Assembly (NCBI GenBank): GCA_963711915.1
Contig: CAVQGA010000022.1
Span: 232,943 to 296,942, forward strand
From: an uncultured Gemmatimonadales bacterium
Lineage (GTDB): Bacteria > Gemmatimonadota > Gemmatimonadetes > Gemmatimonadales > GWC2-71-9
Reading direction: 5' to 3'
DNA length: 64,000 nt
This document shows, piece after piece, positions 2 through 57,138 of this stretch (positions are counted from its first letter, which is position 1; each line of letters starts with the position of its first letter). Made by a program: the position numbers and the translations under genes. The notes below the pieces were generated by a model. It ran no database searches. It saw only the letters and a program-made list of their open reading frames with translations, and was not told the DNA's origin.

Positions 2-721
2 GGGTACGTGGTGGCGATGGCGCTCGGCGGCATCGCCGCGCGCGGGATCGCGCGGCGCGAGCTGGAGGCGCTCGGTGGCGCTCCAGTCGAGCGCCTGATG
101 GTCGCGCCGAGTCCGGTGACGCCGTTCACCCGGCGCGTGGTCGCCCTGCAGGGCGGCGCCTACCGCGTCGGCACGTTTCGCTGGTTCCGGCGGCCGCACG
201 TGGATGGCACGGGGCTTCGCACCTTTCCCGCGGCGCGACCGGGAGACCCGCCGGTCCTCGCGGCTGGAGCGACGGTGGCGGGCCGCCGGTTTCTCGGCTG
301 GACCCGGTTCCTCACCGTCCAGGTCGAGCGCGACCCCGCGGGAGGCTCGCTCGTCCACCTGATCGACCTGCGCTATGCCGATCGGCCGAACGCCGGCTTC
401 GGCAGCCTGACGGTCGCGGGAGCCACGCTCAGCCCGCCGCCAGCTTCCGCGCCACCTCGAGATACCCTCGCACCATCACCGCCAGCCGGCCCTGGCGGTC
501 GGCGTCGGTCAGGCGCCCGCCGGGACCGAAGGCCTTGTCCGCCCAGGGCAGCGCGTACATGTCGGGATACAGCAGGACTCCCAACCCTTCGAGCGGGATG
601 CGAAGCTGCCATAGCCCCCGGACGCCGCCGACCTGGCTGTTCGACGCCGACAGCAGCAGCCCCGACTTGCCGCGGAGCGGCATCGGCTGCATGCGCGAGA
701 CCCAGTCGATGGCGTTCTTGA
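2..721 (+). CDS. membrane-bound metal-dependent hydrolase (YdjM/COG1988-like), C-terminal part; 5' end outside window
   Basis: Frame is open from the window edge. ...RRFLGWTRFLTVQVE...LVHLIDLRYADRP resembles the conserved C-terminal region of this family. Codons after ~429 are P/R/A-rich low complexity and run antisense through the convergent FMN reductase gene, so the 3' end (first stop at 721) is doubtful. Confidence 0.5.
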   Translation, partial: GYVVAMALGGIAARGIARRELEALGGAPVERLMVAPSPVTPFTRRVVALQGGAYRVGTFRWFRRPHVDGTGLRTFPAARPGDPPVLAAGATVAGRRFLGWTRFLTVQVERDPAGGSLVHLIDLRYADRPNAGFGSLTVAGATLSPPPASAPPRDTLAPSPPAGPGGRRRSGARRDRRPCPPRAARTCRDTAGLPTLRAGCEAAIAPGRRRPGCSTPTAAAPTCRGAASAACARPSRWRS

Positions 722-995
722 GCGTGCCTGGTAGCGAAAAATTGTACTCGGGCGAGGCGATCATGAGGCCGTCCGCCGCGGCGATCCGGCGCCCCAGCTC
801 GGTGGCGCCAGGAGGAAACCCGGACTCCGCGCGGAGATCGGCATCGTACAGCGGCATGTCGAACGCGCGAAACTCGGCCAGATCCACCTCGGCCCCGGCC
901 TCGCGCGCCAGGTCGGCCGCCAGCTGCACGAGCTTCCGATTCCAGGAGTCGCGCCGGAGCGACGCCGCGAAGACGAGCAGCCTCGGCGCGGTCAA
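429..995 (-). CDS. NADPH-dependent FMN reductase (flavodoxin-like fold)
   Basis: LLVFAASLRRDSWNRKL...MIASPEYNFSLPGTLKNAIDWVSR is typical of NADPH-dependent FMN reductases. The TTG start at 995 overlaps the stop of the upstream gene (TTGA). Confidence 0.8.
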   Translation of the reverse strand: MTAPRLLVFAASLRRDSWNRKLVQLAADLAREAGAEVDLAEFRAFDMPLYDADLRAESGFPPGATELGRRIAAADGLMIASPEYNFSLPGTLKNAIDWVSRMQPMPLRGKSGLLLSASNSQVGGVRGLWQLRIPLEGLGVLLYPDMYALPWADKAFGPGGRLTDADRQGRLAVMVRGYLEVARKLAAG

Positions 996-1894
996 TTCGA
1001 AGTCATGGTGTAGCGGATGAGGACCCCCTCGACGAACTCGGCGGTCACCTGGCCCTTGTCGGTCGAGTAGACCCGGGTGGTGACCTTGAGCCGACCCTCC
1101 ATCCGGTCGACGCTCTTGCTCGCCGTTCCCAGCAGCCGGTCCACGTCGGCCAGGAGCATGCCCTTGGACGGGAGCCCGCTCGCGGCGGGGCGCGGCGCCG
1201 GGTCGTTCGAGGCGATCGGCATCGGCGAGGGCGGCGCGGCCTCCGCCTCGGGGAACGTGACGTAGGCCGCCAGCGCCTCTTTCACGGCCTCTGGCGTGAG
1301 CGCCGACGCGGGCACGCCGTTCTTGTAGCGGATGTTGAACCGGGAGCCGCCCTCGAGCCGCCGCTGGCGGATGTTGGACTTCTTGGACTCCTCCGCTTCG
1401 GCGACCGACGCCCGGTTCCGCGAATTCTCCCGCTCCCGCTCGGCCTTGAGGTCGTCGAGCTCTTCCTTCATGTCCCGCCGCCGGGCGGGGTCCTGCTCCC
1501 GCTTGAGCTCCGCCTCGAGATTCTGCTCGCGCTTGGTCTTGGGGGCCTGCGTGACGCTGACGCTCGAGGAGGTCTCGTCGCCCATCGTCCCGTAGCCGCC
1601 GCCGTCGAGCTGGAACTCGATCAGGTTCGACTTGACCTTGACCTTGGTGACAAGGGCATCGTCCCCGGCCCTGAGCGCGGTCCCGTTGCTCTTGAGCCGG
1701 CCGGCGTGCCGGGGGAAGTCGAGCGGCTTCGCGGTGCCCGGATAGATGTCGACGCCGTCCTCGGTGCCGGGCATCGCGAGTTTGACCGTGACGGTTCGGC
1801 CCTCGAAGTACTCTCTGAGCGCGGCTTCGGACTGGGCCTGCCCGGAGGCTGGGGCGAGGATGAGCAGCAGCGCGGCCATCGAACGGAAGGGCAT
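992..1894 (-). CDS. secreted protein of unknown function with charged coiled-coil segment
   Basis: ATG at 1894 gives the signal peptide MPFRSMAALLLILAPASGQAQS. It contains the charged stretch KTKREQNLEAELKREQDPARRRDMKEELDDLKAERERE. It is co-oriented with, and overlaps, the FMN reductase gene. Confidence 0.6.
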   Translation of the reverse strand: MPFRSMAALLLILAPASGQAQSEAALREYFEGRTVTVKLAMPGTEDGVDIYPGTAKPLDFPRHAGRLKSNGTALRAGDDALVTKVKVKSNLIEFQLDGGGYGTMGDETSSSVSVTQAPKTKREQNLEAELKREQDPARRRDMKEELDDLKAERERENSRNRASVAEAEESKKSNIRQRRLEGGSRFNIRYKNGVPASALTPEAVKEALAAYVTFPEAEAAPPSPMPIASNDPAPRPAASGLPSKGMLLADVDRLLGTASKSVDRMEGRLKVTTRVYSTDKGQVTAEFVEGVLIRYTMTSN

Positions 1895-1927
1895 GGGCAC
1901 TCCGGGATACGGTGGTTGCGGAAATAG

Positions 1928-1947
1928 ATATATTGTATACAATATAT
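1928..1947. promoter_or_regulatory. 20-bp perfect AT-rich palindrome ATATATTGTATACAATATAT; candidate GntR-family operator in a divergent promoter gap
   Basis: Perfect inverted repeat read directly. Its core TTGTATACAA fits the generic GntR GT-Nx-AC operator pattern. It lies in the 82-bp gap between divergent genes starting at 1894 (-) and 1977 (+), and is the only AT-rich patch there. Confidence 0.6.
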
Positions 1948-1976
1948 TGAACTTCGTATTCCGAAAGGCTTCGACC

Positions 1977-2633
1977 ATGATCGCCAGAAGCCCGCTCCGC
2001 GACTTGGCCTATCAACAGATCGTCGATCGCGTCCAACTCGGCCAGCTACCTGCCGGCTCGCGCGTGCGCGACATCGAACTCGCCGCCCAACTGGGCGTCA
2101 GCCGGACTCCGGTCCGGGAGGCCCTGCTGCGGCTGGCCCGCGAGGGCGTCCTCGAAACCAGCATGGGGCGCGGCTTCACGGTAAGGCGCCTCGACCCGGC
2201 GGAGATTCGGGAGGTGGGCGCCATCCTCGGCGCACTCGAGGCGCTCGCCCTCCGCCTTTCGCCGCCGGCTTCGCCCGCCCGCCTCGATCGTTTGCGGGAG
2301 ATCGATCGGCGCCTCGACCGGACCCGCGGCGATGTCTCGGCTTGTCTGGACCTGGAGGACGAGTGGCACCGCGTGCTGCTCGAGGAATGCCCCAACCGCC
2401 GGTTGATCGACCTGATTACGGCGCTCCGGCAGGTGCCGCGCCGGTACCTGGCGGCCTATCTGCGTGACGCGGGCACGATCAGCCTGTCGACCCAGCCCCA
2501 CGCGAAGATTCTCCACGCCCTCAGCTCGGGCACTGGCGACAGCGTCGCGGCGGTGTTCGACCAGCAATGGCGTCGGGCCGTCGCCGAGCTTGACGCATGG
2601 GCCTCCCGGGCCGCCGCTGGCTCCTCCTCGTGA
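1977..2633 (+). CDS. GntR family transcriptional regulator (FadR/FCD-type C-terminal domain)
   Basis: N-terminal winged helix LPAGSRVRDIELAAQLGVSRTPVREALLRLAREGVLE. ATG at 1977 is in frame with ORF 1746-2633. Confidence 0.85.
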   Translation: MIARSPLRDLAYQQIVDRVQLGQLPAGSRVRDIELAAQLGVSRTPVREALLRLAREGVLETSMGRGFTVRRLDPAEIREVGAILGALEALALRLSPPASPARLDRLREIDRRLDRTRGDVSACLDLEDEWHRVLLEECPNRRLIDLITALRQVPRRYLAAYLRDAGTISLSTQPHAKILHALSSGTGDSVAAVFDQQWRRAVAELDAWASRAAAGSSS

Positions 2634-3844
2634 CACCGCCGGCGGGTCACCCGGATCTCGGTCGCTGGCGGGACGACACGCCGGGGTGCGAGCGTATCGT
2701 GCACCTCAACAACGCCGGGGCGTCGCTCACCCCGCGGCCGGTCCGTCAGGCAATTCGCGCCCACCTCGATCTCGAGGATGAGATCGGCGGCTATGAAGCC
2801 GCCGACGCCCGGATGGAAGCCACTGCGCAAGCAGTGGACGACGTGGCCCAACTGGTCGGCGCCCGGCGCCGCAACATCGCCCTCGTACAGAGCTCCACCG
2901 CGGGCTTCGCCCTGGCCCTGGCGACTTTCGACTTCGCTCCCGGTGACCTGATCGTCACCAGTCGAGCCGACTACGCCTCCAATCAGATCATGTACCTGTC
3001 CCTGGCCCGGCGACTGGGGGCCGAGATCATCCGGGCGCCCGACCTCGCCGAAGGCGGCGTCGACCCGGCCGCCGTTCGCGATCTCATCCGTCGCCGCCGC
3101 CCAAAGCTGGTCGCGATCACTTGGGTCCCCACCAACTCCGGATTGGTCCAAGCGGTGGCCGAGGTCGGGGACGCCTGTCGTGCGGCGGAGGTACCGTACC
3201 TGGTGGATGCCTGCCAGGCGGTCGGACAGATCCCGATCGACGCGGCGCAGATCGGCTGCGACTACCTGGCGGCCACGTCGCGGAAATTTCTCCGCGGACC
3301 CCGTGGCATCGGCTTTCTCTACGTCGCCGACGGCGCCCTGGCGCGTGGTGCTCATCCCCTGCTGCCGGACATGCACGGTGCCACCTGGACCGATCCCGAA
3401 CGCTACCAGCTCGCGCCGGATGCCCGTCGATTCGAGCAGTTCGAGATCTCGTGCGCGCTCGTGCTGGGACTCGGCGCGGCAGCGCGCTACGCCGCGGACG
3501 TGGGACTCGAGTCGGCTCGCGACCGGGCCCGGGCTCTCGCCGCCTACGCCCGTGCCCGGCTCGCGGAACTGCCCGGGGTTCGCGTGTTGGATCGGGGACC
3601 CGAGCTCTGCGCCATCGTCACCGCCGAGACCATGGGTCGGCCGGGCGCCGAAATCAAGCTGGCACTTCGCGCGCGGGGGATCAACACCAGCTCACCATCC
3701 AGGGAGGATGCGGTCATCGACATGGACGCCAAGGGCGCCTCCTCGGCCATCCGCTTCTCGCCGCACTACTACAACACCGCCGCGGAGATCGATACGGGGG
3801 TCGAGGCGGTTCGGGAAGTGCTCGCTCCGCGGGCCGCCCGGTGA
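2597..3844 (+). CDS. class V aminotransferase-fold PLP-dependent enzyme (cysteine desulfurase / epimerase-like)
   Basis: HLNNAGASL..., VDACQAVGQIPID and ATSRKFLRGPRGIGFLY (PLP-lysine region) motifs. An alternative GTG start at 2630 overlaps the GntR stop (GTGA). Confidence 0.8.
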   Translation: MGLPGRRWLLLVTPPAGHPDLGRWRDDTPGCERIVHLNNAGASLTPRPVRQAIRAHLDLEDEIGGYEAADARMEATAQAVDDVAQLVGARRRNIALVQSSTAGFALALATFDFAPGDLIVTSRADYASNQIMYLSLARRLGAEIIRAPDLAEGGVDPAAVRDLIRRRRPKLVAITWVPTNSGLVQAVAEVGDACRAAEVPYLVDACQAVGQIPIDAAQIGCDYLAATSRKFLRGPRGIGFLYVADGALARGAHPLLPDMHGATWTDPERYQLAPDARRFEQFEISCALVLGLGAAARYAADVGLESARDRARALAAYARARLAELPGVRVLDRGPELCAIVTAETMGRPGAEIKLALRARGINTSSPSREDAVIDMDAKGASSAIRFSPHYYNTAAEIDTGVEAVREVLAPRAAR

Positions 3845-3848
3845 CTCC

Positions 3849-3952
3849 CGCGTCATCCTGAGCGGAGCGAAGGATCGGGTCGCTCATGGGAGTGAATCTC
3901 GGGGATCACTCACACCACCGACCCGATCCTTCGCTCCGCTCAGGATGACGCG
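3849..3952. repeat. palindromic intergenic repeat, variant subfamily: perfect 34-bp inverted repeat with 36-nt loop
   Basis: CGCGTCATCCTGAGCGGAGCGAAGGATCGGGTCG (3849-3882) is exactly complementary to 3919-3952. It fills the gap between convergent genes ending at 3844 and 3959. Confidence 0.9.
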
Positions 3953-3958
3953 CGCCCC

Positions 3959-4639
3959 CTACCCTCTCCCCCGCAGCACCTTGTCCAGCACCGGCCAGAC
4001 CGTCTCCGCCACGCGCCGCTGTCCCGCCGCCGTCGGGTGCATCATGTCGTCCTGATTGAGCGACGCTCGCCCCGCCACACCTTCCAGCAGGAACGGCACG
4101 AGGGCGAGCCGGTTGCGCTTGGCCAGCTCGGGATAGACCTGGCTGAATCGCCGGGCGTAGGTCAGCCCGTAGTTGGGGAGGGCCCGCATGCCGACGAGCA
4201 CGATTCGCGGGGGCGGCGTCTGGCGCCGCGCCCGGTCGATGATCGCCTGGATGTTGGCCTCCATCGAGTCCACGTCGAGCCCGCGGAGCCCGTCGTTCGC
4301 GCCGGTCTCGATCACGAGCACGGCGGCCGGCTGGCTCAGGATCCAGTCGATGCGGTGGAGCGCGCCCGACGAGGTCTCGCCGCTGACGCCGGCGTTGACG
4401 GCGGTGAAACGGAGCCCGGCCGAGTCCATCTTCTGCTGCAGCAGCGCGGGATAGGCCTCGGACGGGTCGACCCCAAGCCCCGCGGTGAGGCTCGTACCGA
4501 GAAAAACGACGCGGCCGCGTTCGCCGTCGGCCGGCACCGGCGGCGGACCGGCATCGGCCGGTGCCGGACCCCGATCGCAGGCGCCGATCGCGAGCAGCAC
4601 CAAACCGATCCACCCCCACCGGGGTATCATTGACACCAT
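3959..4639 (-). CDS. tesA: SGNH/GDSL arylesterase / lysophospholipase (TesA-like), lipoprotein signal
   Basis: FLGTSLTAG (GDS-like block), ETGANDGLRG and the DDMMHPT (DxxH) block. Lipobox LLAIGAC. Divergent from a ybbA/ybbP-like pair, as in E. coli. Alternative starts at 4630 (ATG) and 4663 (TTG). Confidence 0.8.
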   Translation of the reverse strand: MVSMIPRWGWIGLVLLAIGACDRGPAPADAGPPPVPADGERGRVVFLGTSLTAGLGVDPSEAYPALLQQKMDSAGLRFTAVNAGVSGETSSGALHRIDWILSQPAAVLVIETGANDGLRGLDVDSMEANIQAIIDRARRQTPPPRIVLVGMRALPNYGLTYARRFSQVYPELAKRNRLALVPFLLEGVAGRASLNQDDMMHPTAAGQRRVAETVWPVLDKVLRGRG

Positions 4640-5306
4640 GCTGCGTTGCGCCTCGCTGACCAAGATCTATCTCTCCGGCGGCCGCCGGCTCACGGTGTTG
4701 AAGGATATCACGTTCGCCGTGGAGCCGGGCGCGTTCGTCGCCATCGTGGGGCCCTCGGGCAGCGGCAAGACGACGCTGCTCGGCCTGCTCGCCGGACTCG
4801 ACCGCCCGACGGCGGGGACCGTGCATCTCGACGGCGAGGAGCTCGGCGCCCTGGACGAGGACCGCCGCGCGCGGCTCCGAGTGGAGAAGGTCGGCTTCGT
4901 GTTCCAGTCGTTCCAGCTCATTCCCACGCTCACCGCCCGCGAGAACGTGCAGGTCCCGCTCGAGCTCCGCGGCGAGGCCGCCGGCGCCCGTGCCACCGAG
5001 CTGCTCGAGCGCGTGGGCCTCGCCGACCGGGGGCACCACTATCCCGCGCAGCTCTCGGGCGGCGAGCAGCAGCGCGTCGCCCTCGCCCGCGCGTTCAGCA
5101 CCCGGCCGCGGGTGCTCTTCGCCGACGAGCCCACCGGCAACCTCGACGCCGGCACCGGCGCCACCATCATCGATCTGATGACGGAGCTCAACCGCGACCT
5201 CGGCACGACGCTGGTCCTGGTAACGCACGACCTCGATCTCGCGGCCCGCGCCCGGCGGACCATCCGCCTGGCCGACGGCGAGATCGTGGCCGATACCGCC
5301 GCGTGA
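4638..5306 (+). CDS. ybbA: ABC transporter ATP-binding protein (YbbA/LolD-like)
   Basis: Walker A GPSGSGKTT, signature LSGGEQQRVALARA, Walker B VLFADEPT. ATG at 4638. Confidence 0.9.
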   Translation: MLRCASLTKIYLSGGRRLTVLKDITFAVEPGAFVAIVGPSGSGKTTLLGLLAGLDRPTAGTVHLDGEELGALDEDRRARLRVEKVGFVFQSFQLIPTLTARENVQVPLELRGEAAGARATELLERVGLADRGHHYPAQLSGGEQQRVALARAFSTRPRVLFADEPTGNLDAGTGATIIDLMTELNRDLGTTLVLVTHDLDLAARARRTIRLADGEIVADTAA

Positions 5307-5345
5307 GCGGGCGCGCACGCGAACCGGGCGCCTGAGCGTCGGCGC

Positions 5346-7898
5346 ATGAGCGGGCCGGCGTTCGTGTTGCGGATGGCCGCGCGCGAGATCAGGGCGGCCC
5401 CACGGCGGCTGCTCCTCCTCACCGCGTCGATCGCGATCGGCGTCGCGGCGCTCGTCGCGATCGACTCCTTCGCCGACAACCTGCGCGACTCGGTCCGGGG
5501 CCAGGCCCGGGCCCTGCTCGGCGCCGACCTGGCGCTCTCCAGCCGGCGCCCGCTGCCGGGCGCCGCGGAGCGGGTGCTCGACACGCTCGCCGCGGCGGGC
5601 GGTCGCGTCGCCCGGCTCACGAGCTTCTCCGGAATGGCGTACGTGCCGCGCACCAACGGCACCCGGCTGGTGCAGGTGGCGGCCGTCGAGGCGGGCTACC
5701 CGTTCTATGGCGAGATCCGGACGGCGCCCGCCGCCGCGTGGTCCGAGCTGCCGCGGGGCGGCCGCGTCGTCGTGGATCCCTCGCTCCTCACGGCACTCCT
5801 CGCGCGCGTCGGCGACACGCTGGCCCTGGGCGAGACCCGCTTCGTCATCAGCGGCACGATCGTGAGCGCTCCGGGCAACGTCGGCGTCCGCGCCGCGTTC
5901 GGACCGCGGATCTACATCTTCGCCGGCAACCTCCCGGCGACGCGCCTCCTGGGCTTCGGCTCGCGCGCCGAGTACGAGGCATACGTGCGGCTGCCCTCGA
6001 CCGCGTCGCCTCAGACGCTCGCGGATCGCTTCCGGCCGCAGCTCGTGCCCGAGCGGGTGCGGGTCCGGACCGTAGCCGAAGACCAGGAGAATCTGAACGA
6101 CGCCCTCGGACGGCTCACCGGATACCTCGGGCTCGTCGCCCTGATCGCGCTGCTCCTGGGCGGGATCGGGGTGAGCAGTGGGGTGGTCGTCTTCATCCGG
6201 CAGCGGCTCGAGACCATCGCGGTGCTTCGCTGCCTCGGTGCGACCGCGGGCCGGGTACTCGCGGTGTACGCCACCGAAGCGGCGGCGATGGGGCTCACCG
6301 GCAGCGTCGCCGGGGCGGCGCTCGGTGTCGTCATGCAGCGGCTGCTGCCGGGCCTGCTGGCGGGATTGCTGCCGGTCGACGTCCGGACAGTGGTGTCGCC
6401 CCGGGCGCTGGCGCTCGGCGTGGGCATGGGGCTCTGGGTCGCGCTCGTCTTCGCGCTGCTGCCGCTGCTCGCGGTGCGGCGGGTGCCGCCGCTCGCGGCG
6501 CTGCGCCGCGAGGTCGAGCCCGAGCCGGAGCGCCGGCTGGACCCGTGGCGGCTCGCCGCCGTTGCCGCGCTCGGGGCGAGCACCGTCGCGCTGGCCGCGC
6601 TCCAGGTGGGAAGCTGGCGCCAGGGGGCCATCTTTTCGGGCGCCGTCGCCACCGCGCTGCTGGTGCTCTGGGGTGCCTCCTGGGCGATGGTCCGCGCCGT
6701 GCGCCGGTGGCTTCCGCGCAGGTGGCCCTATGTCTGGCGGCAGGGCGTCGCCAACCTGCAGCGGCCCTCGAATCAGACGGCCACCGTGGTGCTCGCCATC
6801 GGGTTCGGCGCGTTTCTGCTCGGGACCCTGTTCCTGGTGCAGTACAACCTGCTCCGGACGCTCCGGATCAGCGGCGGACCGGCGCGGCCCAACCTGGTGC
6901 TGTTCGACATTCAGCCCGACCAGCTCGCCACCGTCGACCGGGAGCTCGCCGCCGCGGGCTACCGCGCGGCCGGACCGGTCCCCATCGTCCCGATGCGCAT
7001 TCAGTCCATCAACGGCCGGCCGGTGACGCTCGCGCTGGCCGATAGCGCCCGGGACGAGGACGGCGGCCGCGGGCCGCGGAACGGCTGGGCGCTCCGCCGG
7101 GAATACCGCTCCACCTACCGCGACACGCTGGTGGCCTCCGAGCGGCTCGTGGGCGGGCGGTGGTGGGCGCGCGGCGGGGCGGCGGGCGCGGTCTCGGTCG
7201 AGCGCGACCTTGCGCGCGAGCTCGGCGTCGGCGTGGGCGACCGGATCGTGTGGGACGTGCAGGGCGTGCCGCTCGCCACCCGGGTGGCGAGCCTGCGGGA
7301 GGTGGACTGGGCGCGGTTCGAGCCCAACTTCTTCGTCGTGTTCGCGCCGGGGATGCTCGAGCGGGCGCCGCAGACCTACGTCACGCTCACGCGCATCGCC
7401 GGGCCGGCGGACCGGGGCACGTTTCAGCGGCGCATCGCCGAGCGGCTGCCCAACGTCACCAGCGTGGACCTGTCGTCGGTGCAGGAGACGCTCGAGCGCC
7501 TCATCGACCGGGTGACGCTCGCGATCCGGTTCATGGCGCTCTTCACCCTCGGCACCGGCACGCTGGTGCTGGTCGGAGCGCTCGCCACCAGCCGGTTTCA
7601 GCGGATCCGCGAGGGGGCGCTCCTCAGGACCCTCGGAGCCACGCGCGCCCAGCTGCTCCGGATCGTGCTGTCAGAGTACCTCTCGCTGGGAGCGCTGGCC
7701 GCGGCCGTGGCGCTGGGCCTGGCGGGCGTGGCCGGCTGGGCGCTCGCCCGTTTCGTGTTCGACGGGACGTTCGACCTGCCACTGCTCCCCTTCACCGGTC
7801 TCGGCGCCGCGGTCGTCGCGCTCACGGTGGCGGTGGGCCTCGCCAACAGCCGCGAGGTGCTGCGCCGGCCGCCGCTCGAGGTCCTGCGGTCGGAATGA
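5346..7898 (+). CDS. ybbP: ABC transporter permease with duplicated FtsX-type domains (YbbP-like)
   Basis: 850 aa with two blocks of TM helices separated by large extracytoplasmic domains. It immediately follows the ATPase, matching the E. coli tesA/ybbA/ybbP arrangement. Confidence 0.8.
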   Translation: MSGPAFVLRMAAREIRAAPRRLLLLTASIAIGVAALVAIDSFADNLRDSVRGQARALLGADLALSSRRPLPGAAERVLDTLAAAGGRVARLTSFSGMAYVPRTNGTRLVQVAAVEAGYPFYGEIRTAPAAAWSELPRGGRVVVDPSLLTALLARVGDTLALGETRFVISGTIVSAPGNVGVRAAFGPRIYIFAGNLPATRLLGFGSRAEYEAYVRLPSTASPQTLADRFRPQLVPERVRVRTVAEDQENLNDALGRLTGYLGLVALIALLLGGIGVSSGVVVFIRQRLETIAVLRCLGATAGRVLAVYATEAAAMGLTGSVAGAALGVVMQRLLPGLLAGLLPVDVRTVVSPRALALGVGMGLWVALVFALLPLLAVRRVPPLAALRREVEPEPERRLDPWRLAAVAALGASTVALAALQVGSWRQGAIFSGAVATALLVLWGASWAMVRAVRRWLPRRWPYVWRQGVANLQRPSNQTATVVLAIGFGAFLLGTLFLVQYNLLRTLRISGGPARPNLVLFDIQPDQLATVDRELAAAGYRAAGPVPIVPMRIQSINGRPVTLALADSARDEDGGRGPRNGWALRREYRSTYRDTLVASERLVGGRWWARGGAAGAVSVERDLARELGVGVGDRIVWDVQGVPLATRVASLREVDWARFEPNFFVVFAPGMLERAPQTYVTLTRIAGPADRGTFQRRIAERLPNVTSVDLSSVQETLERLIDRVTLAIRFMALFTLGTGTLVLVGALATSRFQRIREGALLRTLGATRAQLLRIVLSEYLSLGALAAAVALGLAGVAGWALARFVFDGTFDLPLLPFTGLGAAVVALTVAVGLANSREVLRRPPLEVLRSE

Positions 7899-14307: not shown

Positions 14308-14570
14308 GCGCGTCATCCTGACCACGTTCGCTGCGCTCAGGGTAAATTCCCCGAAGGATCGGCTGGGTGGTGCGTGTGACGCTCGTGCCTCACCCTCATG
14401 CCCAAGCCGATCCTTCGCGATCATGTGTCATCCCGAGCGCAGCGAGGGATCTTGCCGGGGAATGGTTCGAGCCCGGCCCGGCAAGATCCCTCGCTGCGCT
14501 CGGGATGACCGTGCCCTTCTCGGGATGACCGTGCCCTCCTCAGAATGACGTCGCCCTTCTCGGGATGACA
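14308..14570. repeat. palindromic intergenic repeat cluster containing the canonical 32-bp perfect hairpin plus four 20-nt phased right arms
   Basis: GTCATCCCGAGCGCAGCGAGGGATCTTGCCGG (14427-14458) is perfectly complementary to 14478-14509. GATGAC-type arms end at 14509, 14529, 14549 and 14569. An upstream sub-element has GAAGGATCGGCT (14353-14364) paired with AGCCGATCCTTC (14405-14416). Confidence 0.9.
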
Positions 14571-14572
14571 AG

Positions 14573-15316
14573 ATGACAGCCGCGGCCTACCGCCATCTCC
14601 TGTCCGAGCTCGACGCCTGGTTCGCGCGCGGCGCGGCCGCCGCCGGCGGGCTGGTGCCGTGCCGTGGCGGCTGCAGCGCCTGCTGCCACGGCCCGTTCGA
14701 CATCTCGGTGGCCGACGCGGAGCTGATCAGGGAGGCGCTCGACGCGCTGCCCACACCGGCGCAAGCGGAGGTTGCGCGACGGGCCCGCGTCCTGCTGGAC
14801 CAGATGCGCGCCCTCGAGCCCGGGTGGGCCCCGCCCTACGCCGTGGACGCGCTCGGAGAGGACCGCTTCGATCGCCTCACGGACGCCCTCGCCCGCGAGC
14901 CCTGTCCCCTGCTGGACGACACCGGCCGCTGCCGCATCTACGCCAGCCGGCCGCTGGTCTGCCGCCTGATCGGCCTCGGAATGCGCACGCCAACCGGCCG
15001 CCTCGTCGAAAACGCCTGCCCGATCCAGGATCGCTTCCCAGGCTACGCCGAGCTCGCGCCGGCGCCGTTCGATCTGGAGGCGTTCGAGGAAGCCGAGGCC
15101 GGGTGCTTGCAGGCGGCGGCGATGCGCCGGTTCGGAACGGCCGAGCGGCACGGGTTCGAGACCACGATCGCCGCGACGATCGTGGAACGCACACCTGTCA
15201 TCTCGAGCGGCAGCGGCATCCCGAACGCGGGGACGTCATCCCGAGCGCAGCGAGGGATCTTGCCGGGAAATGGTTCGAGCTCGACCCAGCAAGATCCCTC
15301 ACTGCGCTCGGGATGA
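14573..15316 (+). CDS. YkgJ/UPF0153 family zinc/iron-sulfur cluster protein (CxxxCxxCC)
   Basis: CRGGCSACCHGPF motif plus a second Cys cluster CPLLDDTGRCRIYASRPLVCR. The last ~40 codons (...VISSGSGIPNAGTSSRAQRGILPGNG...SLRSG) and the stop codon lie inside the repeat element at 15197-15352. Confidence 0.7.
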   Translation: MTAAAYRHLLSELDAWFARGAAAAGGLVPCRGGCSACCHGPFDISVADAELIREALDALPTPAQAEVARRARVLLDQMRALEPGWAPPYAVDALGEDRFDRLTDALAREPCPLLDDTGRCRIYASRPLVCRLIGLGMRTPTGRLVENACPIQDRFPGYAELAPAPFDLEAFEEAEAGCLQAAAMRRFGTAERHGFETTIAATIVERTPVISSGSGIPNAGTSSRAQRGILPGNGSSSTQQDPSLRSG

Positions 15317-37479: not shown

Positions 37480-37522
37480 TTGACGCCACTGGGCTTCGGT
37501 TTATATTCGGGTACGACGTGCC
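37480..37522 (+). promoter_or_regulatory. strong sigma70-type promoter (TTGACG-N16-TATATT) with abutting imperfect palindrome GGTACGACGTGCC (candidate operator)
   Basis: -35 at 37480-37485 and -10 at 37502-37507. The 13-mer at 37510-37522 pairs at 5 of 6 positions around a central A. It is also flanked by TTCGG...CCGAA (37505-37524). Confidence 0.55.
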
Positions 37523-37548
37523 GAATGGAACCGAACCGCGGAGCCGCC

Positions 37549-37722
37549 ATGCCTTCCTCTCACCCCTGCCGCCCCTCGCTGTCTCCGACACGGTACCTCC
37601 CGGCCCAGCGCGGCTCCGCTCCCGAAACCACGCTCCGCGTCTGCCCCGAATGCGCCAACCCGCTCGTCCGCGCGTCCGGCTGCGTGAGCTGCCGCCACTG
37701 CGGCTGGGCCCGCTGCGGGTGA
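37549..37722 (+). CDS. small zinc-ribbon protein (CPEC...CRHC), 57 aa
   Basis: GGAG lies 5 nt upstream of ATG 37549. C-terminal VCPECANPLVRASGCVSCRHCGW. The stop overlaps the next gene's GTG (GTGA at 37719-37722). An alternative ATG is at 37525. Confidence 0.55.
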   Translation: MPSSHPCRPSLSPTRYLPAQRGSAPETTLRVCPECANPLVRASGCVSCRHCGWARCG

Positions 37723-38750
37723 CGGCCCGGCAGCTCGACCTCCTGCCGTCGTCCGGGACGGCGGAGCCGAGGTGGCAGGTGCTGGACGAGCGCGGTCGCG
37801 GCACCCGGTTTCTCGCGCTCTCGGTGCGGTCGGTGCTCAACACCTCCGCCACGACGGGCATGGGCTTCTGGTCCATCAACCCCTACGTCGGCTGCGAGTT
37901 CGGCTGCACGTACTGCTACGCGCGGGACACCCATCGCTACGCGATGGAGCGGAGTGGCGTCCCGGCCGAGCCGCTGCCGGCGTGGCAGGCGTTCGAGCAG
38001 CGGATTCTGGTCAAGACCGGGGTCGCGGACGTGCTGGCGCGGACGCTCGACCCCTCCCGGCTCGGCGAGCACTCGCTGGTCATCGGCACCGCCACCGATC
38101 CCTACCAGCCCGCTGAGCGGCGGTTCCGGCTCACGCGCCGGGTGCTGGAGGTGCTGCTGCAGCATCGCGGGCTGGCGCTCGGCGTCATCACCAAGTCGCC
38201 GCTCGTGACGCGCGACATCGACCTGCTCGGCCGGCTCGGCGAGCGGCACGAGGTGACGGTCAACATCTCGCTCGCCACGCTGGACCGGCGTCTCGCCCGC
38301 CGGCTCGAGCTCCGCTCGCCGGTGCCGGAGGCGCGGATCCGGGCACTCGGCCGGCTCACCGCCGCGGGCATCCACGCGGGGCTCCTGGTAGCGCCGATCC
38401 TCCCCGGCATCACCGACGACCGCGCGGGGCTCGACCGCCTGATGGGCGCGGCGAAGGAGGCGGGTGCCCGCTACGTGGTCGGGTCGGCGCTCCGGCTCGG
38501 CCCCGCGGCGCGGCAGCGCTTCCTTCCCATGCTCGCCCGGGAGTTTCCGGGGCTCGCCGAGCGCTACGCCCGGCACTACGCCCGGAGCGAGGGCGTGAGC
38601 GCGGCCTACCAGCGCGCGCTGTCGGAACGCCTGCACCAACTGCAACGGCACCATGGCTTCCCGGTGGAGGAAGGCCGCCGCCGGCGGCAGCAGCTCGAAG
38701 GGCGGGAGCACCGGCTGCCGGCGTCGGAGCAGCAGCCGCGGCTGCTGTGA
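37719..38750 (+). CDS. radical SAM protein, Rv2578c / SplB-like (COG1533 DNA repair photolyase family)
   Basis: INPYVGCEFGCTYCYARDTH contains the CxxxCxxC radical SAM cluster in the sequence context typical of this family. Confidence 0.8.
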   Translation: MTARQLDLLPSSGTAEPRWQVLDERGRGTRFLALSVRSVLNTSATTGMGFWSINPYVGCEFGCTYCYARDTHRYAMERSGVPAEPLPAWQAFEQRILVKTGVADVLARTLDPSRLGEHSLVIGTATDPYQPAERRFRLTRRVLEVLLQHRGLALGVITKSPLVTRDIDLLGRLGERHEVTVNISLATLDRRLARRLELRSPVPEARIRALGRLTAAGIHAGLLVAPILPGITDDRAGLDRLMGAAKEAGARYVVGSALRLGPAARQRFLPMLAREFPGLAERYARHYARSEGVSAAYQRALSERLHQLQRHHGFPVEEGRRRRQQLEGREHRLPASEQQPRLL

Positions 38751-39991
38751 TGCGCTCCGTCCTCTTCGTCGACCCGCCCGCCTTCTGCACCACCGTCGAA
38801 GGCCTCGTGGCGCCGGCCCTCCGGACGCGGCCCGTCGCGGTGGCGCCGCCGGGGGCCGACCGCGCCACCATCCTCGCGCTCTCGGCGGAGGCGCGGCTGG
38901 CGGGAATCGAGCGGGGCATGCCGGTGCGGCAGGCGCTCAAGCGCTGTCCCGATCTCGTGCTGCTGCCGCCCAATCCGCAGCTCTACGCCCGGGCCTCGCG
39001 CGCGCTCCACGAGGTGCTCCGGATCTACGCGCCGGTCATCGAGCCTCACGGCTACGGCCACGCCTTCCTCGACCTCACCGGCACCGGGCGGCTCTTCGGC
39101 CCGGCGGTGGACGTGGCCGCGCGAGTGCAGCGCGAGATCCGCGAGCGGCTCCGGCTGCCGGTCTCGGTGGGTGTGGCCGCCAACAAGCTGGTGAGCCAGG
39201 CCGCCACGACGGTGGTCAAGCCCGAGCCGCTGCTCGAGGTGCCGGGTGGCTCGGAGGCGAGCTTCCTCGCGCCCCATCCGCTCGACGTGCTGCCCGAGCT
39301 GCATCCCCGGATGCGGCAGCGGCTCGACGACTATCAGCTCGACCTCATCGGGGAGGTCGCCGCCATCACCGAGAGCGCGCTGTGCGCGGTCTTCGGCGGC
39401 GCGGGGCGCATGCTCCGGGCGCAGGCGCGCGGCATCGATCCGCGTCCGGTGCTGCCGCCCGAGCGGCAGGCCGAGTTCCACGTCGCCCACGCGCTGGCCA
39501 CCGACACCAACGACCTCGGCGTGCTGCACCCGCTGCTCCGGGTGCTCGGCGAGCGGCTCGGCCGCCGGCTCCGCCGGCGCGGGCTCGTGGCGCGGCGGCT
39601 CCGGGTCGCGCTCACCTACGCCGACCACACCGCCGCCACCCGCGCCGTGGCGCTCCGCGGGGCGGCGCTCGACGCCGAGCTGTGGGACGCGGCGCGCCGC
39701 GCGTTCACCCAGGCCAACGCCCGGCGGCTCGCGGTCCGGAGGGTATCGCTCACGCTGGACCGGCTGGAGGAAGCGGAGGGGCAACTGGATCTGTGGGGGA
39801 TGGTCATGGCGGGAGGGGCGGAGACGGGAACAGGCAACGAGCTGCCCGGCGCGGAGTCCGGCTCCGGCCTTGGCGCGGGATTCCCCGCGCGCTCCCGCCC
39901 CCGCGCCCTGCAGCAGGCCCTCGACCGCATCACCACCCGCTACGGCGCGCGCGCGGTCGCCAGCGCGGCCGTGCACGCGCTCACCAGGTGA
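38747..39991 (+). CDS. Y-family DNA polymerase-fold protein lacking catalytic acidic residues (ImuB-like)
   Basis: VLFVDPPAFCTTVE (versus the D-x-D of active DinB/Dpo4) and YGHAFLDLTG (versus SIDEAYLD). VGVAANKLVSQAA is conserved. QLDLWG at 39782-39799 resembles a beta-clamp-binding motif. GTG 38747 / ATG 38750 overlap the upstream stop. Confidence 0.75.
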   Translation: MMRSVLFVDPPAFCTTVEGLVAPALRTRPVAVAPPGADRATILALSAEARLAGIERGMPVRQALKRCPDLVLLPPNPQLYARASRALHEVLRIYAPVIEPHGYGHAFLDLTGTGRLFGPAVDVAARVQREIRERLRLPVSVGVAANKLVSQAATTVVKPEPLLEVPGGSEASFLAPHPLDVLPELHPRMRQRLDDYQLDLIGEVAAITESALCAVFGGAGRMLRAQARGIDPRPVLPPERQAEFHVAHALATDTNDLGVLHPLLRVLGERLGRRLRRRGLVARRLRVALTYADHTAATRAVALRGAALDAELWDAARRAFTQANARRLAVRRVSLTLDRLEEAEGQLDLWGMVMAGGAETGTGNELPGAESGSGLGAGFPARSRPRALQQALDRITTRYGARAVASAAVHALTR

Positions 39992-40745: not shown

Positions 40746-40855
40746 GCGGTCGCCAGCGCGGTCGCGCCCGCTCACGGTGTACGCGCTCTCACCAGGTGAC
40801 CACCACCTTGCCGAAGGTCTCGTTCGCCTCGAGCGCGCGGTGGGCCTCGACCAGC
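40746..40855. repeat. copy B of the ~100-bp imperfect direct repeat (true qor 3' end plus a relic of the ImuB-like C terminus)
   Basis: Same shared blocks as copy A, with a ~13-15-nt extra segment. The + strand reads ...AAVASAVAPAHGVRALTR*, echoing the ImuB-like C terminus ...ARAVASAAVHALTR*. Confidence 0.8.
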
Positions 40856-41766
40856 TCCGCCATGGGATAGCTGCGCTCCAGCACCGGCCGGAGCGGCGCC
40901 GCGTGCTCGATACGACGGTCGAACAGCGGCAGCATCCGCTCGGCGAAGCCTCGCACCAGCGCCGCGCGCTCCTCCGACCCCCGCGTTCGCATCACCGTGC
41001 CGATCACCTCGAGCCGCTTCCGGAGGATTGGTCCCAGGTCCGCGGTCGCCCGGCTCCCGGCCAGGAAGCCCAGCAGGATCAGCCGCCCGCGCGGCGCCAG
41101 CACCGCGAGGTTGTCGGCGAAGGCGGGACCGCCGAGCACGTCGAGCACGACATCCACCGGGTCACCCACGACGTCGCGGAACCCCGCCCGGCTGGTGTCG
41201 ATCCCGACGTCGAGCCCGTAGACGGTGGCCCGCGCGAGCTTGTCGGCGCTCCGGGAGGTGCCGAGGACGGTGGCGCCGAGGTGCTTGGCGATCTGCGCCG
41301 CCGCGGTGCCGACGCCGCTCCCCACCGCGTGGATCAGCACCCGCTCGCCCGAGGCCAGCCGCGCGCGGGTGACCAGCGCATCGTACGCGGTGAGAAACAC
41401 CTCCGGGATCGCCGCCGCTTCGGCGAAGGAGAGGTCCGCCGGCACCGCCAGCACCTCGTCCTCGTGCGCCGTCAGCAGCTCCGCCTGCGCGCCGCCGCCT
41501 ACCAGGCCCATGACCCGGTCGCCCACCTTCCACTTCGAGACCCCGCGCACCGCCTCGACCTCGCCGGCGTACTCCATGCCGGGGATGTCGGCCGGCCAGC
41601 CGGGGGGCGCCGCGTACTGGCCGCGCCGCTGGATCAGGTCGGCCCGGTTGAGCCCGGCGGCGTGAACGCGCACGCGAATGTGCCCCGGCCGCACCTCGGG
41701 CTTCGGGACGTCGCCCATCGAGATGACCTCGGGGCCGCCGGCACCGGTATAGATCACCGCGCGCAT
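40789..41766 (-). CDS. NADPH:quinone oxidoreductase (zeta-crystallin-like medium-chain dehydrogenase)
   Basis: HAAGLNRADL, GERVLIHAVGSGVGTAAAQIAK and C-terminal FGKVVVTW. Confidence 0.85.
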   Translation of the reverse strand: MRAVIYTGAGGPEVISMGDVPKPEVRPGHIRVRVHAAGLNRADLIQRRGQYAAPPGWPADIPGMEYAGEVEAVRGVSKWKVGDRVMGLVGGGAQAELLTAHEDEVLAVPADLSFAEAAAIPEVFLTAYDALVTRARLASGERVLIHAVGSGVGTAAAQIAKHLGATVLGTSRSADKLARATVYGLDVGIDTSRAGFRDVVGDPVDVVLDVLGGPAFADNLAVLAPRGRLILLGFLAGSRATADLGPILRKRLEVIGTVMRTRGSEERAALVRGFAERMLPLFDRRIEHAAPLRPVLERSYPMAELVEAHRALEANETFGKVVVTW

Positions 41767-44247: not shown

Positions 44248-44467
44248 GTCATCTCGAGCGGGGCCGCGGTCATCTCGAGCGGAGCCGCCGTCATCCCGGC
44301 TCCGGCGAGGGAGCCCGCCGCTGTCATCCCGAGCGCAGCGAGGGATCTGCTCCTCGGGGGTTCGAGCTCGGCCCGGCAAGATCCCTCGCTGCGCTCGGGA
44401 TGACGGCGGCTGCGCCCGGGATGACGGCGGCTGCGCTCGGGATGACAGGGCCTGCCCTCGGGATGAC
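44248..44467. repeat. nested palindromic repeat cluster between kdpA and kdpB (4 left + 4 right arms)
   Basis: GTCATC arms start at 44248, 44269, 44290 and 44323. GATGAC arms end at 44404, 44425, 44446 and 44467 (21-nt phasing). The central arms are near-identical to the canonical element at 14427-14509. Confidence 0.9.
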
Positions 44468-57070: not shown

Positions 57071-57138
57071 CAAAAGTACTTTTGGTAGTGATAAGTTCCA
57101 ACCCTTCATTTGTCAATCGAGCTTTTGCCGCTTATACT
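57071..57138 (+). promoter_or_regulatory. 14-bp perfect palindrome CAAAAGTACTTTTG plus sigma70-type promoter TTGTCA-N17-TATACT ending 8 nt before the CGNR gene ATG
   Basis: Palindrome at 57071-57084. -35 at 57110-57115 and -10 at 57133-57138. ATG at 57147 implies a leaderless or near-leaderless mRNA. The region is an AT-rich island in the divergent gap. Confidence 0.5.

Follow-up and report, generated by a model that had tools for sequence, protein, structure and literature searches.

A candidate SOS-type operon of Gemmatimonadales joining a six-cysteine finger protein and a COG1533 radical-SAM protein to an inactive Y-family polymerase homologue

Background

Among the described systems closest to the operon reported here are the ImuA-ImuB-DnaE2 cassettes of Mycobacterium tuberculosis, Pseudomonas aeruginosa, and Caulobacter crescentus, the predicted iPolY-DnaE2B-RecA modules, and the SplB-like radical S-adenosylmethionine (radical-SAM) proteins of COG1533. 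The last of these are already known to belong to the SOS response: Rv2578c is a LexA target in chromatin immunoprecipitation sequencing (PMC3381160), PA0069 belongs to the 15 SOS genes of P. aeruginosa (bioRxiv 10.1101/2022.03.14.484287, citing Cirz 2006), and splB is SOS-regulated in alpha- and betaproteobacteria and in Bacteroidetes (PMC3323433, PMC8565304). Another radical-SAM protein, of the COG4277 type, forms a known SOS pair with uracil-DNA glycosylase (PMC8565304), and a RecA-NT motif has been described for many Y-family proteins (PMC6511836). A further point of comparison comes from the class II ribonucleotide reductases (RNRs), since in Stackebrandtia nassauensis NrdJd the six-cysteine array binds zinc, and electrons reach the active site only when all six cysteines are in place (PMC5704485). 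The present study concerns three consecutive genes, here called g1, g2, and g3, in a 64-kb stretch of contig CAVQGA010000022.1 from an uncultured Gemmatimonadales bacterium; this whole stretch, with a G+C content of ~70%, is referred to as the window. An earlier note on this DNA had read the genes as a compact putative DNA-damage cassette, made up of a zinc-ribbon peptide, a radical-SAM protein, and a catalytically dead ImuB-like Y-family protein, without imuA or dnaE2. We find that the three genes probably form an SOS-type, damage-inducible operon that joins two separable modules, g1 with g2 and g3 by itself. We know of no biochemical function assigned to the SplB-like COG1533 proteins in the ~20 years that they have figured as SOS genes from Mycobacterium to Pseudomonas.

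Results

Operator and regulon

The upstream regions of 60 related loci were aligned, and in this alignment the −35 element, a TTCGG-NN-TATA-TTCGG repeat pair around the −10 element, and, 7–13 variable bases further on, a CCGAA-Y-A-W-A-NN-CCGAA element immediately before the ribosome-binding site are conserved. Read on the opposite strand, the left element matches the right one, so that the operator is built from a direct repeat, 11 bp in period, which occurs twice in inverted orientation. The earlier note had taken an imperfect palindrome beside the −10 element for the operator; this proposal was given up, since across 199 operators the corresponding spacer is conserved neither in sequence nor in length (7–13 nt) while the flanking TTCGG and CCGAA repeats are kept. 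The palindrome is thus only a non-conserved spacer within a larger, four-repeat operator; with its outer bases it reaches into both halves, over the final G of the left one and the initial CC of the right one.

When 185,579 species genomes were scanned with the pattern TTCGGNNTATATTCGGN{6,14}CCGAA, at least 120 stretches matched, nearly all of them in Gemmatimonadota; by our own estimate, ~40 would be expected by chance. Among the matches listed, the operator is followed by ~70 radical-SAM operons (at least 54 led by a g1-type open reading frame [ORF]), 12 dnaE2 genes, two recA genes (L101, L184), and two COG4277-type radical-SAM genes, a content that is the classical SOS set. Because the same composite motif also precedes recA and dnaE2, we regard the operator as a Gemmatimonadota SOS-type box, and we propose the inverted pair of CCGAA-Y-A-W-A-NN-CCGAA elements, 7–13 nt apart, found at 37495–37535 of the window and in loci L081–L199, as a candidate SOS box for the phylum, for which no published SOS box was found in the searchable literature. 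The suggestion of a damage-inducible type of operon is thereby strengthened, in so far as an operator common to recA, dnaE2, and the radical-SAM operons across the phylum predicts it.

Other genes directly behind the operator, in loci L096, L125, L108/L180, L178/L190, L116, L102/L149, and L185, are possible further regulon members; read from the sequence by eye, they comprise COG4277-type radical-SAM proteins, a 77-aa protein, a small helix-hairpin-helix-like protein, a winged-helix-like protein, antitoxin- and prophage-like ORFs, and an HNH/DUF222-like protein. The promoter had been called one of the best in the window, which was borne out: with either strand of the 64 kb considered, a score of 10/12 or more is reached by only one further site, TTGTCA-N17-TATACT at 57110–57138 on the + strand. 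An RNA element in the leader was considered and dropped, as the leader has no Rfam match and transcription is likely to start downstream of the left operator half.

The inactive Y-family protein g3

In Pfam and NCBIfam, g3 is made up of an IMS domain (E 7e-38) and an IMS_C domain (E 2e-13), and HMMER aligns it over 320 residues with the solved structures of Escherichia coli DinB (E 5e-29). In this alignment D8 is kept, D10 is replaced by P10, the steric-gate F13 by C13, D103 by G103, and E104 by H104, so that two of the three metal ligands are lost. The earlier claim of a dead Y-family protein therefore stands for the equivalents of D10, D103, and E104, which are gone, but it had gone too far in denying the protein all three carboxylates, as D8 is retained. 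D8, P9, and G103 are present in 78 of 79 relatives and H104 in 77 of the 79, while P10 and C13 are invariant in an alignment of 35 sequences; since the replaced residues are invariant or nearly so, the inactivation is old and fixed. An AlphaFold2 model of g3 built with 35 close homologues (mean predicted local distance difference test 60.7, predicted template modelling score 0.35) had a low-confidence palm and was left unused, being too poor for a fold search; the HMMER alignment to DinB took its place.

The tail of g3 has a layout common to all relatives, in which Q-L-[DE]-L-W is followed by a variable low-complexity linker and then by ALQxA[LIV]DRIxxR[YW]G. The beta-clamp-type motif that the earlier note had seen is both present and conserved, with Q-[LM]-[DE]-L-W in ~73/79 relatives, and clamp binding is predicted from it. 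Pfam DUF4113 positions 2–24 are matched by 18 of 27 g3 tails, the best at E 1.9e-4 and under the gathering score, and the second motif may, on weak grounds, correspond to RecA-NT. Only 10–30 non-conserved residues follow it, and the ImuB-C domain (~80 aa, beta-rich, with a conserved C-terminal Trp) is absent from g3; g3 is for this reason better described as an inactive PolY-core-like iPolY than as ImuB proper. The ImuB-like identity, taken strictly, does not survive this comparison, since g3 is DinB-like by sequence and has no ImuB-C.

The zinc-finger protein g1 and the radical-SAM protein g2

The C-terminus of g1 reads C-x2-C-x9-C-x2-C-x2-CGW-x2-C-G, with a cysteine spacing that is constant in 107/107 distinct sequences and an N-terminus that varies freely; 106 of these sequences end C-x2-C-x9-C-x2-C-x2-C-x4-C-x and the remaining one has two residues past the last cysteine. 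The small zinc-ribbon ORF of the earlier note is accordingly real and conserved. Of the class II RNR model NF006417, the final ~31 positions are matched by each of the 29 g1 tails tested (best E 1.2e-6), and g1 of the window matches this model at E 2e-7. A filter-only phmmer search with g1 against 1.84 billion representative proteins gave 71 matches, mostly proteins of 40–110 aa that end in the motif, and recovered RNR tails at E 7e-5 to 5e-4. The larger matches include RNR proteins (Ribonuc_red_lgC, some with TSCPD) and TSCPD-only fragments, and the nine that were checked all have this signature at their end, as in ...CPECGNEIVATGGCVECKHCGWTKCG. Cysteine spacing identical to that of g1 was found in three RNR tails (P0174, P0175, and P0185), and the Stackebrandtia NrdJd tail has x5 in its last cysteine gap (PMC5704485). 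Judged by these sequence comparisons, the C-terminus of g1 and the terminal six-cysteine zinc finger of class II RNRs are homologous. There is no dedicated Pfam or NCBIfam model for the g1 family, and the few members called in a collection of 5.8 billion proteins are all named "hypothetical". A search of the PDB with the g1 profile returned generic zinc-finger noise only. In 22 of 115 homologues a PT.Y.P motif (PTRYLP here, within the N-terminal part encoded at 37549–37640) stands 13–28 residues before the zinc finger and may serve for docking in one subfamily only.

In g2, the radical-SAM cluster motif CxxxCxxC lies within NPYVGCEFGCTYCYAR. Its assignment to the Rv2578c/COG1533 radical-SAM family by the earlier note is confirmed by a Radical_SAM domain (E 1.4e-15, 58 bits vs a cut-off of 29.5) and by 225 bits against the Rv2578c model, and its model scores place it within the Rv2578c-PA0069 COG1533 superfamily and outside both curated families. 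Cysteines outside the cluster motif are lacking in g2, as they are in 70 of 104 homologues from the phylum vs 11 of 91 COG1533 proteins elsewhere. A hydrogen-donor cysteine supplied to g2 in trans was considered on this account and set aside as only suggestive, the family having no conserved extra cysteine anywhere.

Conservation of the three-gene unit

The gene pairing postulated in the earlier note is conserved, as the order g1-g2-g3 recurs in most of 80 related Gemmatimonadales loci. The genes g2 and g3 are contiguous, with a gap of ≤200 nt, in 26 of the 80, lie 200–700 nt apart in 29, and are split by unrelated genes in 13; seven loci have g3 without g2 for at least 2.5 kb upstream, and five, with <2.5 kb of upstream sequence, are uninformative. 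A separated g3 is always preceded, ~40 nt upstream, by a CCGAA-N6-CCGAA box of its own (17 loci), which argues that g3 by itself is an SOS gene and that its linkage to g2 can be broken. Across the phylum, a same-strand Y-family gene is found in 36 of 42 radical-SAM operons that are anchored by the SOS box and have informative downstream sequence.

The picture outside the phylum was taken from 120 COG1533 loci, drawn by the motif NPYxGCxxGCxYC and spanning Proteobacteria, Acidobacteriota, Bacteroidota, Planctomycetota, and others. Neither a six-cysteine ORF nor a DnaE gene occurs in any of the 120, and a Y-family gene is present in four, each time on the opposite strand and 2–2.7 kb away. Since neither occurs in the outside loci, the g1 partner and the operon of radical-SAM and dead-polymerase genes are specific to Gemmatimonadota in this sample.

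Several loci depart from the common arrangement. Foreign genes stand between g1 and g2 in L054, L062, L065, L077, and L079 (by eye, DinB_2/YfiT-like metal-dependent and PEP-mutase-like), and a protein labelled by eye as a CGNR zinc-finger protein is encoded immediately upstream of a separately boxed g3 in L032, L035, and L058. The metagenome-assembled genome (MAG) SMAG_U2108 holds an operon-linked g3 and, on another contig, a second, stand-alone boxed g3 (L084, L059), so that the bin contains a paralogue or else a mixture of strains. A 945-aa "radical-SAM fusion" in L148 proved to be an artefact of masked N bases.

Link to DnaE2

The earlier note had presented the cassette as free of dnaE2. 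This is correct for the window, in which tblastn found no DnaE homologue, but not for close relatives, in which boxed dnaE2-like genes lie near g3, and as a general description it fails at the level of the lineage, other orders carrying g1, radical-SAM, ImuB-like, and DnaE2 genes together. Within Gemmatimonadales, a boxed DnaE2-like gene lies 1.8–4.5 kb downstream of g3 in L001, L012, L036, and L080 (3–4.5 kb in the latter three). In L001, whose g3 is 80% identical, a quinone oxidoreductase that the window shares comes after g3, then 3-methyladenine DNA glycosylase I (tag) and an SOS box with a 1076-aa DnaE2-like gene; synteny of the window with L001 stops after the oxidoreductase, and in the window SnoaL and kdpA come next. 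Of the 80 loci, 33 have a DnaE-like match downstream of g3. The Gemmatimonadales protein is ambiguous in NCBIfam, with 579 bits against Pol III alpha vs 561 against the error-prone model, both below cut-off, and is called DnaE2-like here because of the SOS box and length of its gene.

In other lineages, the box, g1, the radical-SAM gene, an ImuB-like gene, and dnaE2 stand in one row (L088, at 550–6469; L105, L121, L131, L162, L166, L167, and L183). The polymerase of the sister-order row passes the NCBIfam cut-off for "error-prone DNA polymerase" (968 vs 939 bits). The Y-family member in sister orders differs from g3: it is a dead ImuB-like protein that scores 67 bits against IMS and is marked by an N-terminal CVWIPLFALRCEE, by QLFA, and by a conserved end, ...PWSRIPERRYALIDF; the segment ...QPWSRIPERRYALIDF, with which these proteins terminate, is likewise conserved. 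No ORF resembling imuA was seen within or next to the rows, imuA not having been searched for genome-wide. The gaps of 1.5–2.5 kb between radical-SAM and ImuB-like genes in L131, L187, and L106 were considered as places for imuA and by sequence hold glyoxalase-like, opposite-strand, and other unrelated ORFs.

Three short, dispersed stretches of the window (14428–14490, 15209–15298, and 44341–44415) have translations that match a low-complexity insert (...RGAEKVPRFARDDE...) of the L001 DnaE2-like protein, and together they look like a small repeated element of these genomes.

Gene structure and neighbourhood

The coordinates of the operon are given in Table 1. The coupling of the three genes by stop/start overlaps, as claimed in the earlier note, was confirmed (GTGA at 37719–37722 and GTGATG at the g2/g3 junction), and the motifs on which that note had relied (INPYVGCEFGCTYCYARDTH, VLFVDPPAF, YGHAFLDL, QLDLWG at 39782–39799, and the palindrome at 37510–37522) were all found in place. 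Among relatives, both g2 and g3 are conserved at the N-terminus from the first residue onwards, which supports the start codons assigned to them; the nearest relatives are all Gemmatimonadales MAGs. Upstream of the operon lies a divergent sigma-54 activator with two GAF domains, and downstream follow a peptidoglycan-binding protein, a PIG3-type quinone oxidoreductase (− strand), a SnoaL-like protein, and kdpA. The flanking genes are thus unrelated to DNA repair.

Table 1. Features of the g1-g2-g3 operon and of the related stretch in L001 (window coordinates unless stated)
Feature	Position	Strand	Remarks
Sigma-70-type promoter TTGACG-N16-TATATT	37480..37507	+	score 10/12; −35 and −10 positions kept in relatives
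Operator left half TTCGGTTTATATTCGG	37495..37510	+	reverse complement of CCGAA-N6-CCGAA; overlaps −10; conserved in relatives
Imperfect palindrome GGTACGACGTGCC	37510..37522	+	variable spacer between the two operator halves
Operator right half CCGAATGGAACCGAA	37521..37535	+	internal spacer N5
g1	37549..37722	+	57 aa; GGAG at 37540-37543
g2	37719..38750	+	343 aa; GTG start within GTGA 37719-37722, overlapping the g1 TGA stop
g3	38750..39991	+	413 aa; ATG at 38750 overlaps the g2 stop (38748-38750) within GTGATG
GYGHAFLD	39050..39073	+	g3 residues 101-108; in place of the DinB catalytic motif SLDEAYLD
QLDLW	39782..39796	+	g3 residues 345-349; beta-clamp-binding-type motif
ALQQALDRITTRYGARAV	39905..39958	+	RecA-NT / DUF4113-N-like motif near the g3 C-terminus
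Syntenic stretch in L001	7277-12339 (L001)		vs window 40789-41766

Discussion

Proposed working of the operon and points against it

The explanation that we consider probable is that of an SOS-type, damage-inducible operon that joins two separable modules. Gene structure, loss of the active site, conservation of motifs and operator, and content of the regulon have been established computationally. A repressor, presumably LexA-like, would bind the composite operator, made of two inverted copies of the CCGAA-N6-CCGAA direct repeat with one of them lying on the −10 element, and derepression would yield a single transcript from which the three genes are translated through their stop/start overlaps. 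In the first module, g2 would probably use a 5'-deoxyadenosyl radical, derived from S-adenosylmethionine at a [4Fe-4S] cluster, to reverse or process a DNA lesion, a role proposed by analogy, and g1 would probably serve it as a thiol/redox relay or docking module, a role suggested by the way in which the class II RNR tail shuttles reducing equivalents. In the second module, g3 would be an inactive scaffold, bound to the beta clamp through QLDLW and to RecA through its RecA-NT-like tail, that brings in an error-prone polymerase of the DnaE2 type, whose gene would lie elsewhere in the genome, as ImuB does in the ImuA-ImuB-DnaE2 mutasomes. The identity of the repressor, each of these biochemical activities, and the presence of dnaE2 in this genome are inferred.

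Several observations weigh against this reading. The scores of g2 fall well below the cut-offs of both curated models (224.8 vs 430 bits for Rv2578c, NF038135; 213.2 vs 360 for PA0069, NF033668), its match to the spore photoproduct lyase model TIGR04070 is limited to residues 165–228 and 16.6 bits vs a cut-off of 400, and a search of the sequences of solved structures at E ≤ 1 returned an unrelated formyltransferase only; given these sub-cut-off models, the marginal lyase match, and the lack of a solved relative, lesion repair by g2 is an analogy and not a result. The tail motif of g3 falls on RecA residues 21–44 in hhalign, but weakly so (E 0.004, probability 8%). The two modules may not be independent, since the linkage of radical-SAM and dead Y-family genes, counted above, is tight throughout the phylum. 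The right operator half has an N5 spacer that is unique here, the other 198 of 199 complete operators having N6, and because it is 1 nt shorter, repression or regulation in this genome may be weaker or different. A tblastn search with E. coli LexA gave no match in ~1.4 Mb of fetched Gemmatimonadota loci, which are small flanks around the queried genes and motifs, so that the absence says little and the regulator is known only by inference. Finally, the partner polymerase is an assumption for this genome, the window having no DnaE homologue.

Alternative explanations

The model of the earlier note made the dead polymerase a clamp-tethered adaptor that would hold the radical-SAM and zinc proteins at stalled forks, the three together making up a self-sufficient unit for lesion processing with no need of DnaE2. 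It agrees with the overlaps that join all three genes, with the 36 of 42 informative operons in which a dead Y-family gene comes after the radical-SAM gene, both on one strand, with the recruitment of two very different Y-family types as radical-SAM partners (DinB-like and ImuB-like, 26–36% identical), with a window free of dnaE, and with the published link between ImuB-C and SplB-like radical-SAM proteins (PMC3765255). We nevertheless regard it as unlikely, since g3 stands alone behind its own box in 17 loci and in seven lacks g2 for at least 2.5 kb upstream, dnaE2 shares the regulon and usually lies nearby or within the operon, the tail of g3 has a RecA-NT-type motif typical of polymerase-recruiting scaffolds, and none of the 120 COG1533 loci of other phyla has a same-strand Y-family gene. 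Improbable to the same degree is a four-component mutasome, in which g1 and the radical-SAM protein would occupy the ImuA slot in one complex with the dead scaffold and DnaE2 and might, for example, process the lesion or a blocked 3' end ahead of error-prone extension. Its appeal lies in the rows of box, g1, radical-SAM, ImuB-like, and DnaE2 genes in several orders, with no imuA-like ORF in or beside them, in the phylum-specific linkage, and in the existence of ImuA-less DnaE2 systems (PMC6511836); it is harder to reconcile with the unrelated genes often inserted between g1 and g2, g2 and g3, or g3 and dnaE2, with the absence of fusion proteins among the loci seen, and with the prediction that RecA substitutes for ImuA wherever a RecA-NT motif is present (PMC6511836). 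Quite unlikely, as we see it, is a more far-reaching proposal, in which g1 and g2 would be a new radical DNA-repair system, a radical-SAM enzyme lacking cysteines outside its cluster, fed with hydrogen atoms or electrons by a free-standing RNR-type six-cysteine zinc finger, the pair being tethered to the clamp by g3, and would form the ImuA-replacing part of a four-component Gemmatimonadota DnaE2 mutasome.

The operator could also belong to a damage or stress regulator other than LexA, which would put the operon outside the RecA/LexA SOS response. To our knowledge, the motif is unlike every described LexA box, and the only one with which it shares a resemblance is the alphaproteobacterial direct repeat GAAC-N7-GAAC. 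There are damage regulons that do not depend on LexA (bioRxiv 10.1101/2025.02.19.639066), and no lexA turned up in the fetched loci; however, only small flanks were sampled for it, and recA, dnaE2, splB-type, and COG4277-type radical-SAM genes make up the classical SOS set (PMC8565304), for which reasons we judge a non-LexA regulator very unlikely.

Significance

Through the fixed genomic link of a radical-SAM gene to the machinery of a dead polymerase and DnaE2, lesion processing and error-prone bypass could be coordinated, and the catalogue of ImuA-less DnaE2 cassettes is widened by a variant led by a radical-SAM gene. As its partner g1 is homologous to the redox-shuttle tail of RNRs, a thiol-dependent radical reaction is hinted at for COG1533. 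Gemmatimonadota, a major soil phylum, also gains a candidate SOS box. Were the modules merely co-regulated, this would be an ordinary, though neatly conserved, SOS operon.

Comparison with known systems

The operon shares with the ImuA-ImuB-DnaE2 cassettes an SOS-type regulation, a dead Y-family protein with a clamp motif and a putative RecA-NT-like motif, and a DnaE2-type polymerase in the regulon, which in the sister orders of Gemmatimonadota belongs to the same operon. It differs in that a zinc-finger protein and a radical-SAM protein take the upstream place, with no imuA seen (it was not searched for directly), in that g3 is DinB-like and has no ImuB-C, and in that dnaE2 lies outside this window. 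The iPolY-DnaE2B-RecA modules predicted by Timinskas and Venclovas (PMC6511836; PMC12926913) likewise have an inactive PolY-core-like protein with RecA-NT (putative in g3), no ImuA or ImuB-C, and a DnaE2-like partner; those papers name neither a radical-SAM nor a zinc-finger partner and do not mention Gemmatimonadota, and the iPolY described here is usually co-transcribed with a radical-SAM gene, unlike their pairing of iPolY with DnaE2. A link between an ImuB module and radical-SAM proteins in SOS contexts has been published in the form of operons of ImuB-C with SplB-like proteins (Aravind et al. 2013, PMC3765255), where the ImuB-C is standalone, whereas here the partner is a Y-family core without ImuB-C or, in sister orders, a full ImuB-like protein.

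The SOS-regulated SplB-like COG1533 genes of other bacteria (Rv2578c and PA0069; alpha- and betaproteobacteria, Bacteroidetes) belong to the superfamily of g2 and are under the same type of regulation, but elsewhere COG1533 is a lone SOS gene, while in Gemmatimonadota it is accompanied by g1 and a Y-family gene. Spore photoproduct lyase (SplB, Bacillus subtilis), a radical-SAM enzyme that acts on DNA, is the origin of the COG1533 label 'DNA repair photolyase', and g2 matches it marginally. The C-terminal finger of class II RNRs (Loderer et al. 2017, PMC5704485) has, like g1, a six-cysteine array at the C-terminus and the signature CPECG...CGW..CG, and both accompany an enzyme that works through a 5'-deoxyadenosyl radical; g1, in contrast, is free-standing, ~50–110 aa long with a variable N-terminus, and encoded beside a radical-SAM protein instead of being part of an RNR, and its redox role is putative. 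Set against these systems, what is new is the g1 family, homologous as it is to the redox tail of RNRs, the operator motif, and a phylum-wide cassette in which g1 and a radical-SAM gene stand where imuA normally sits.

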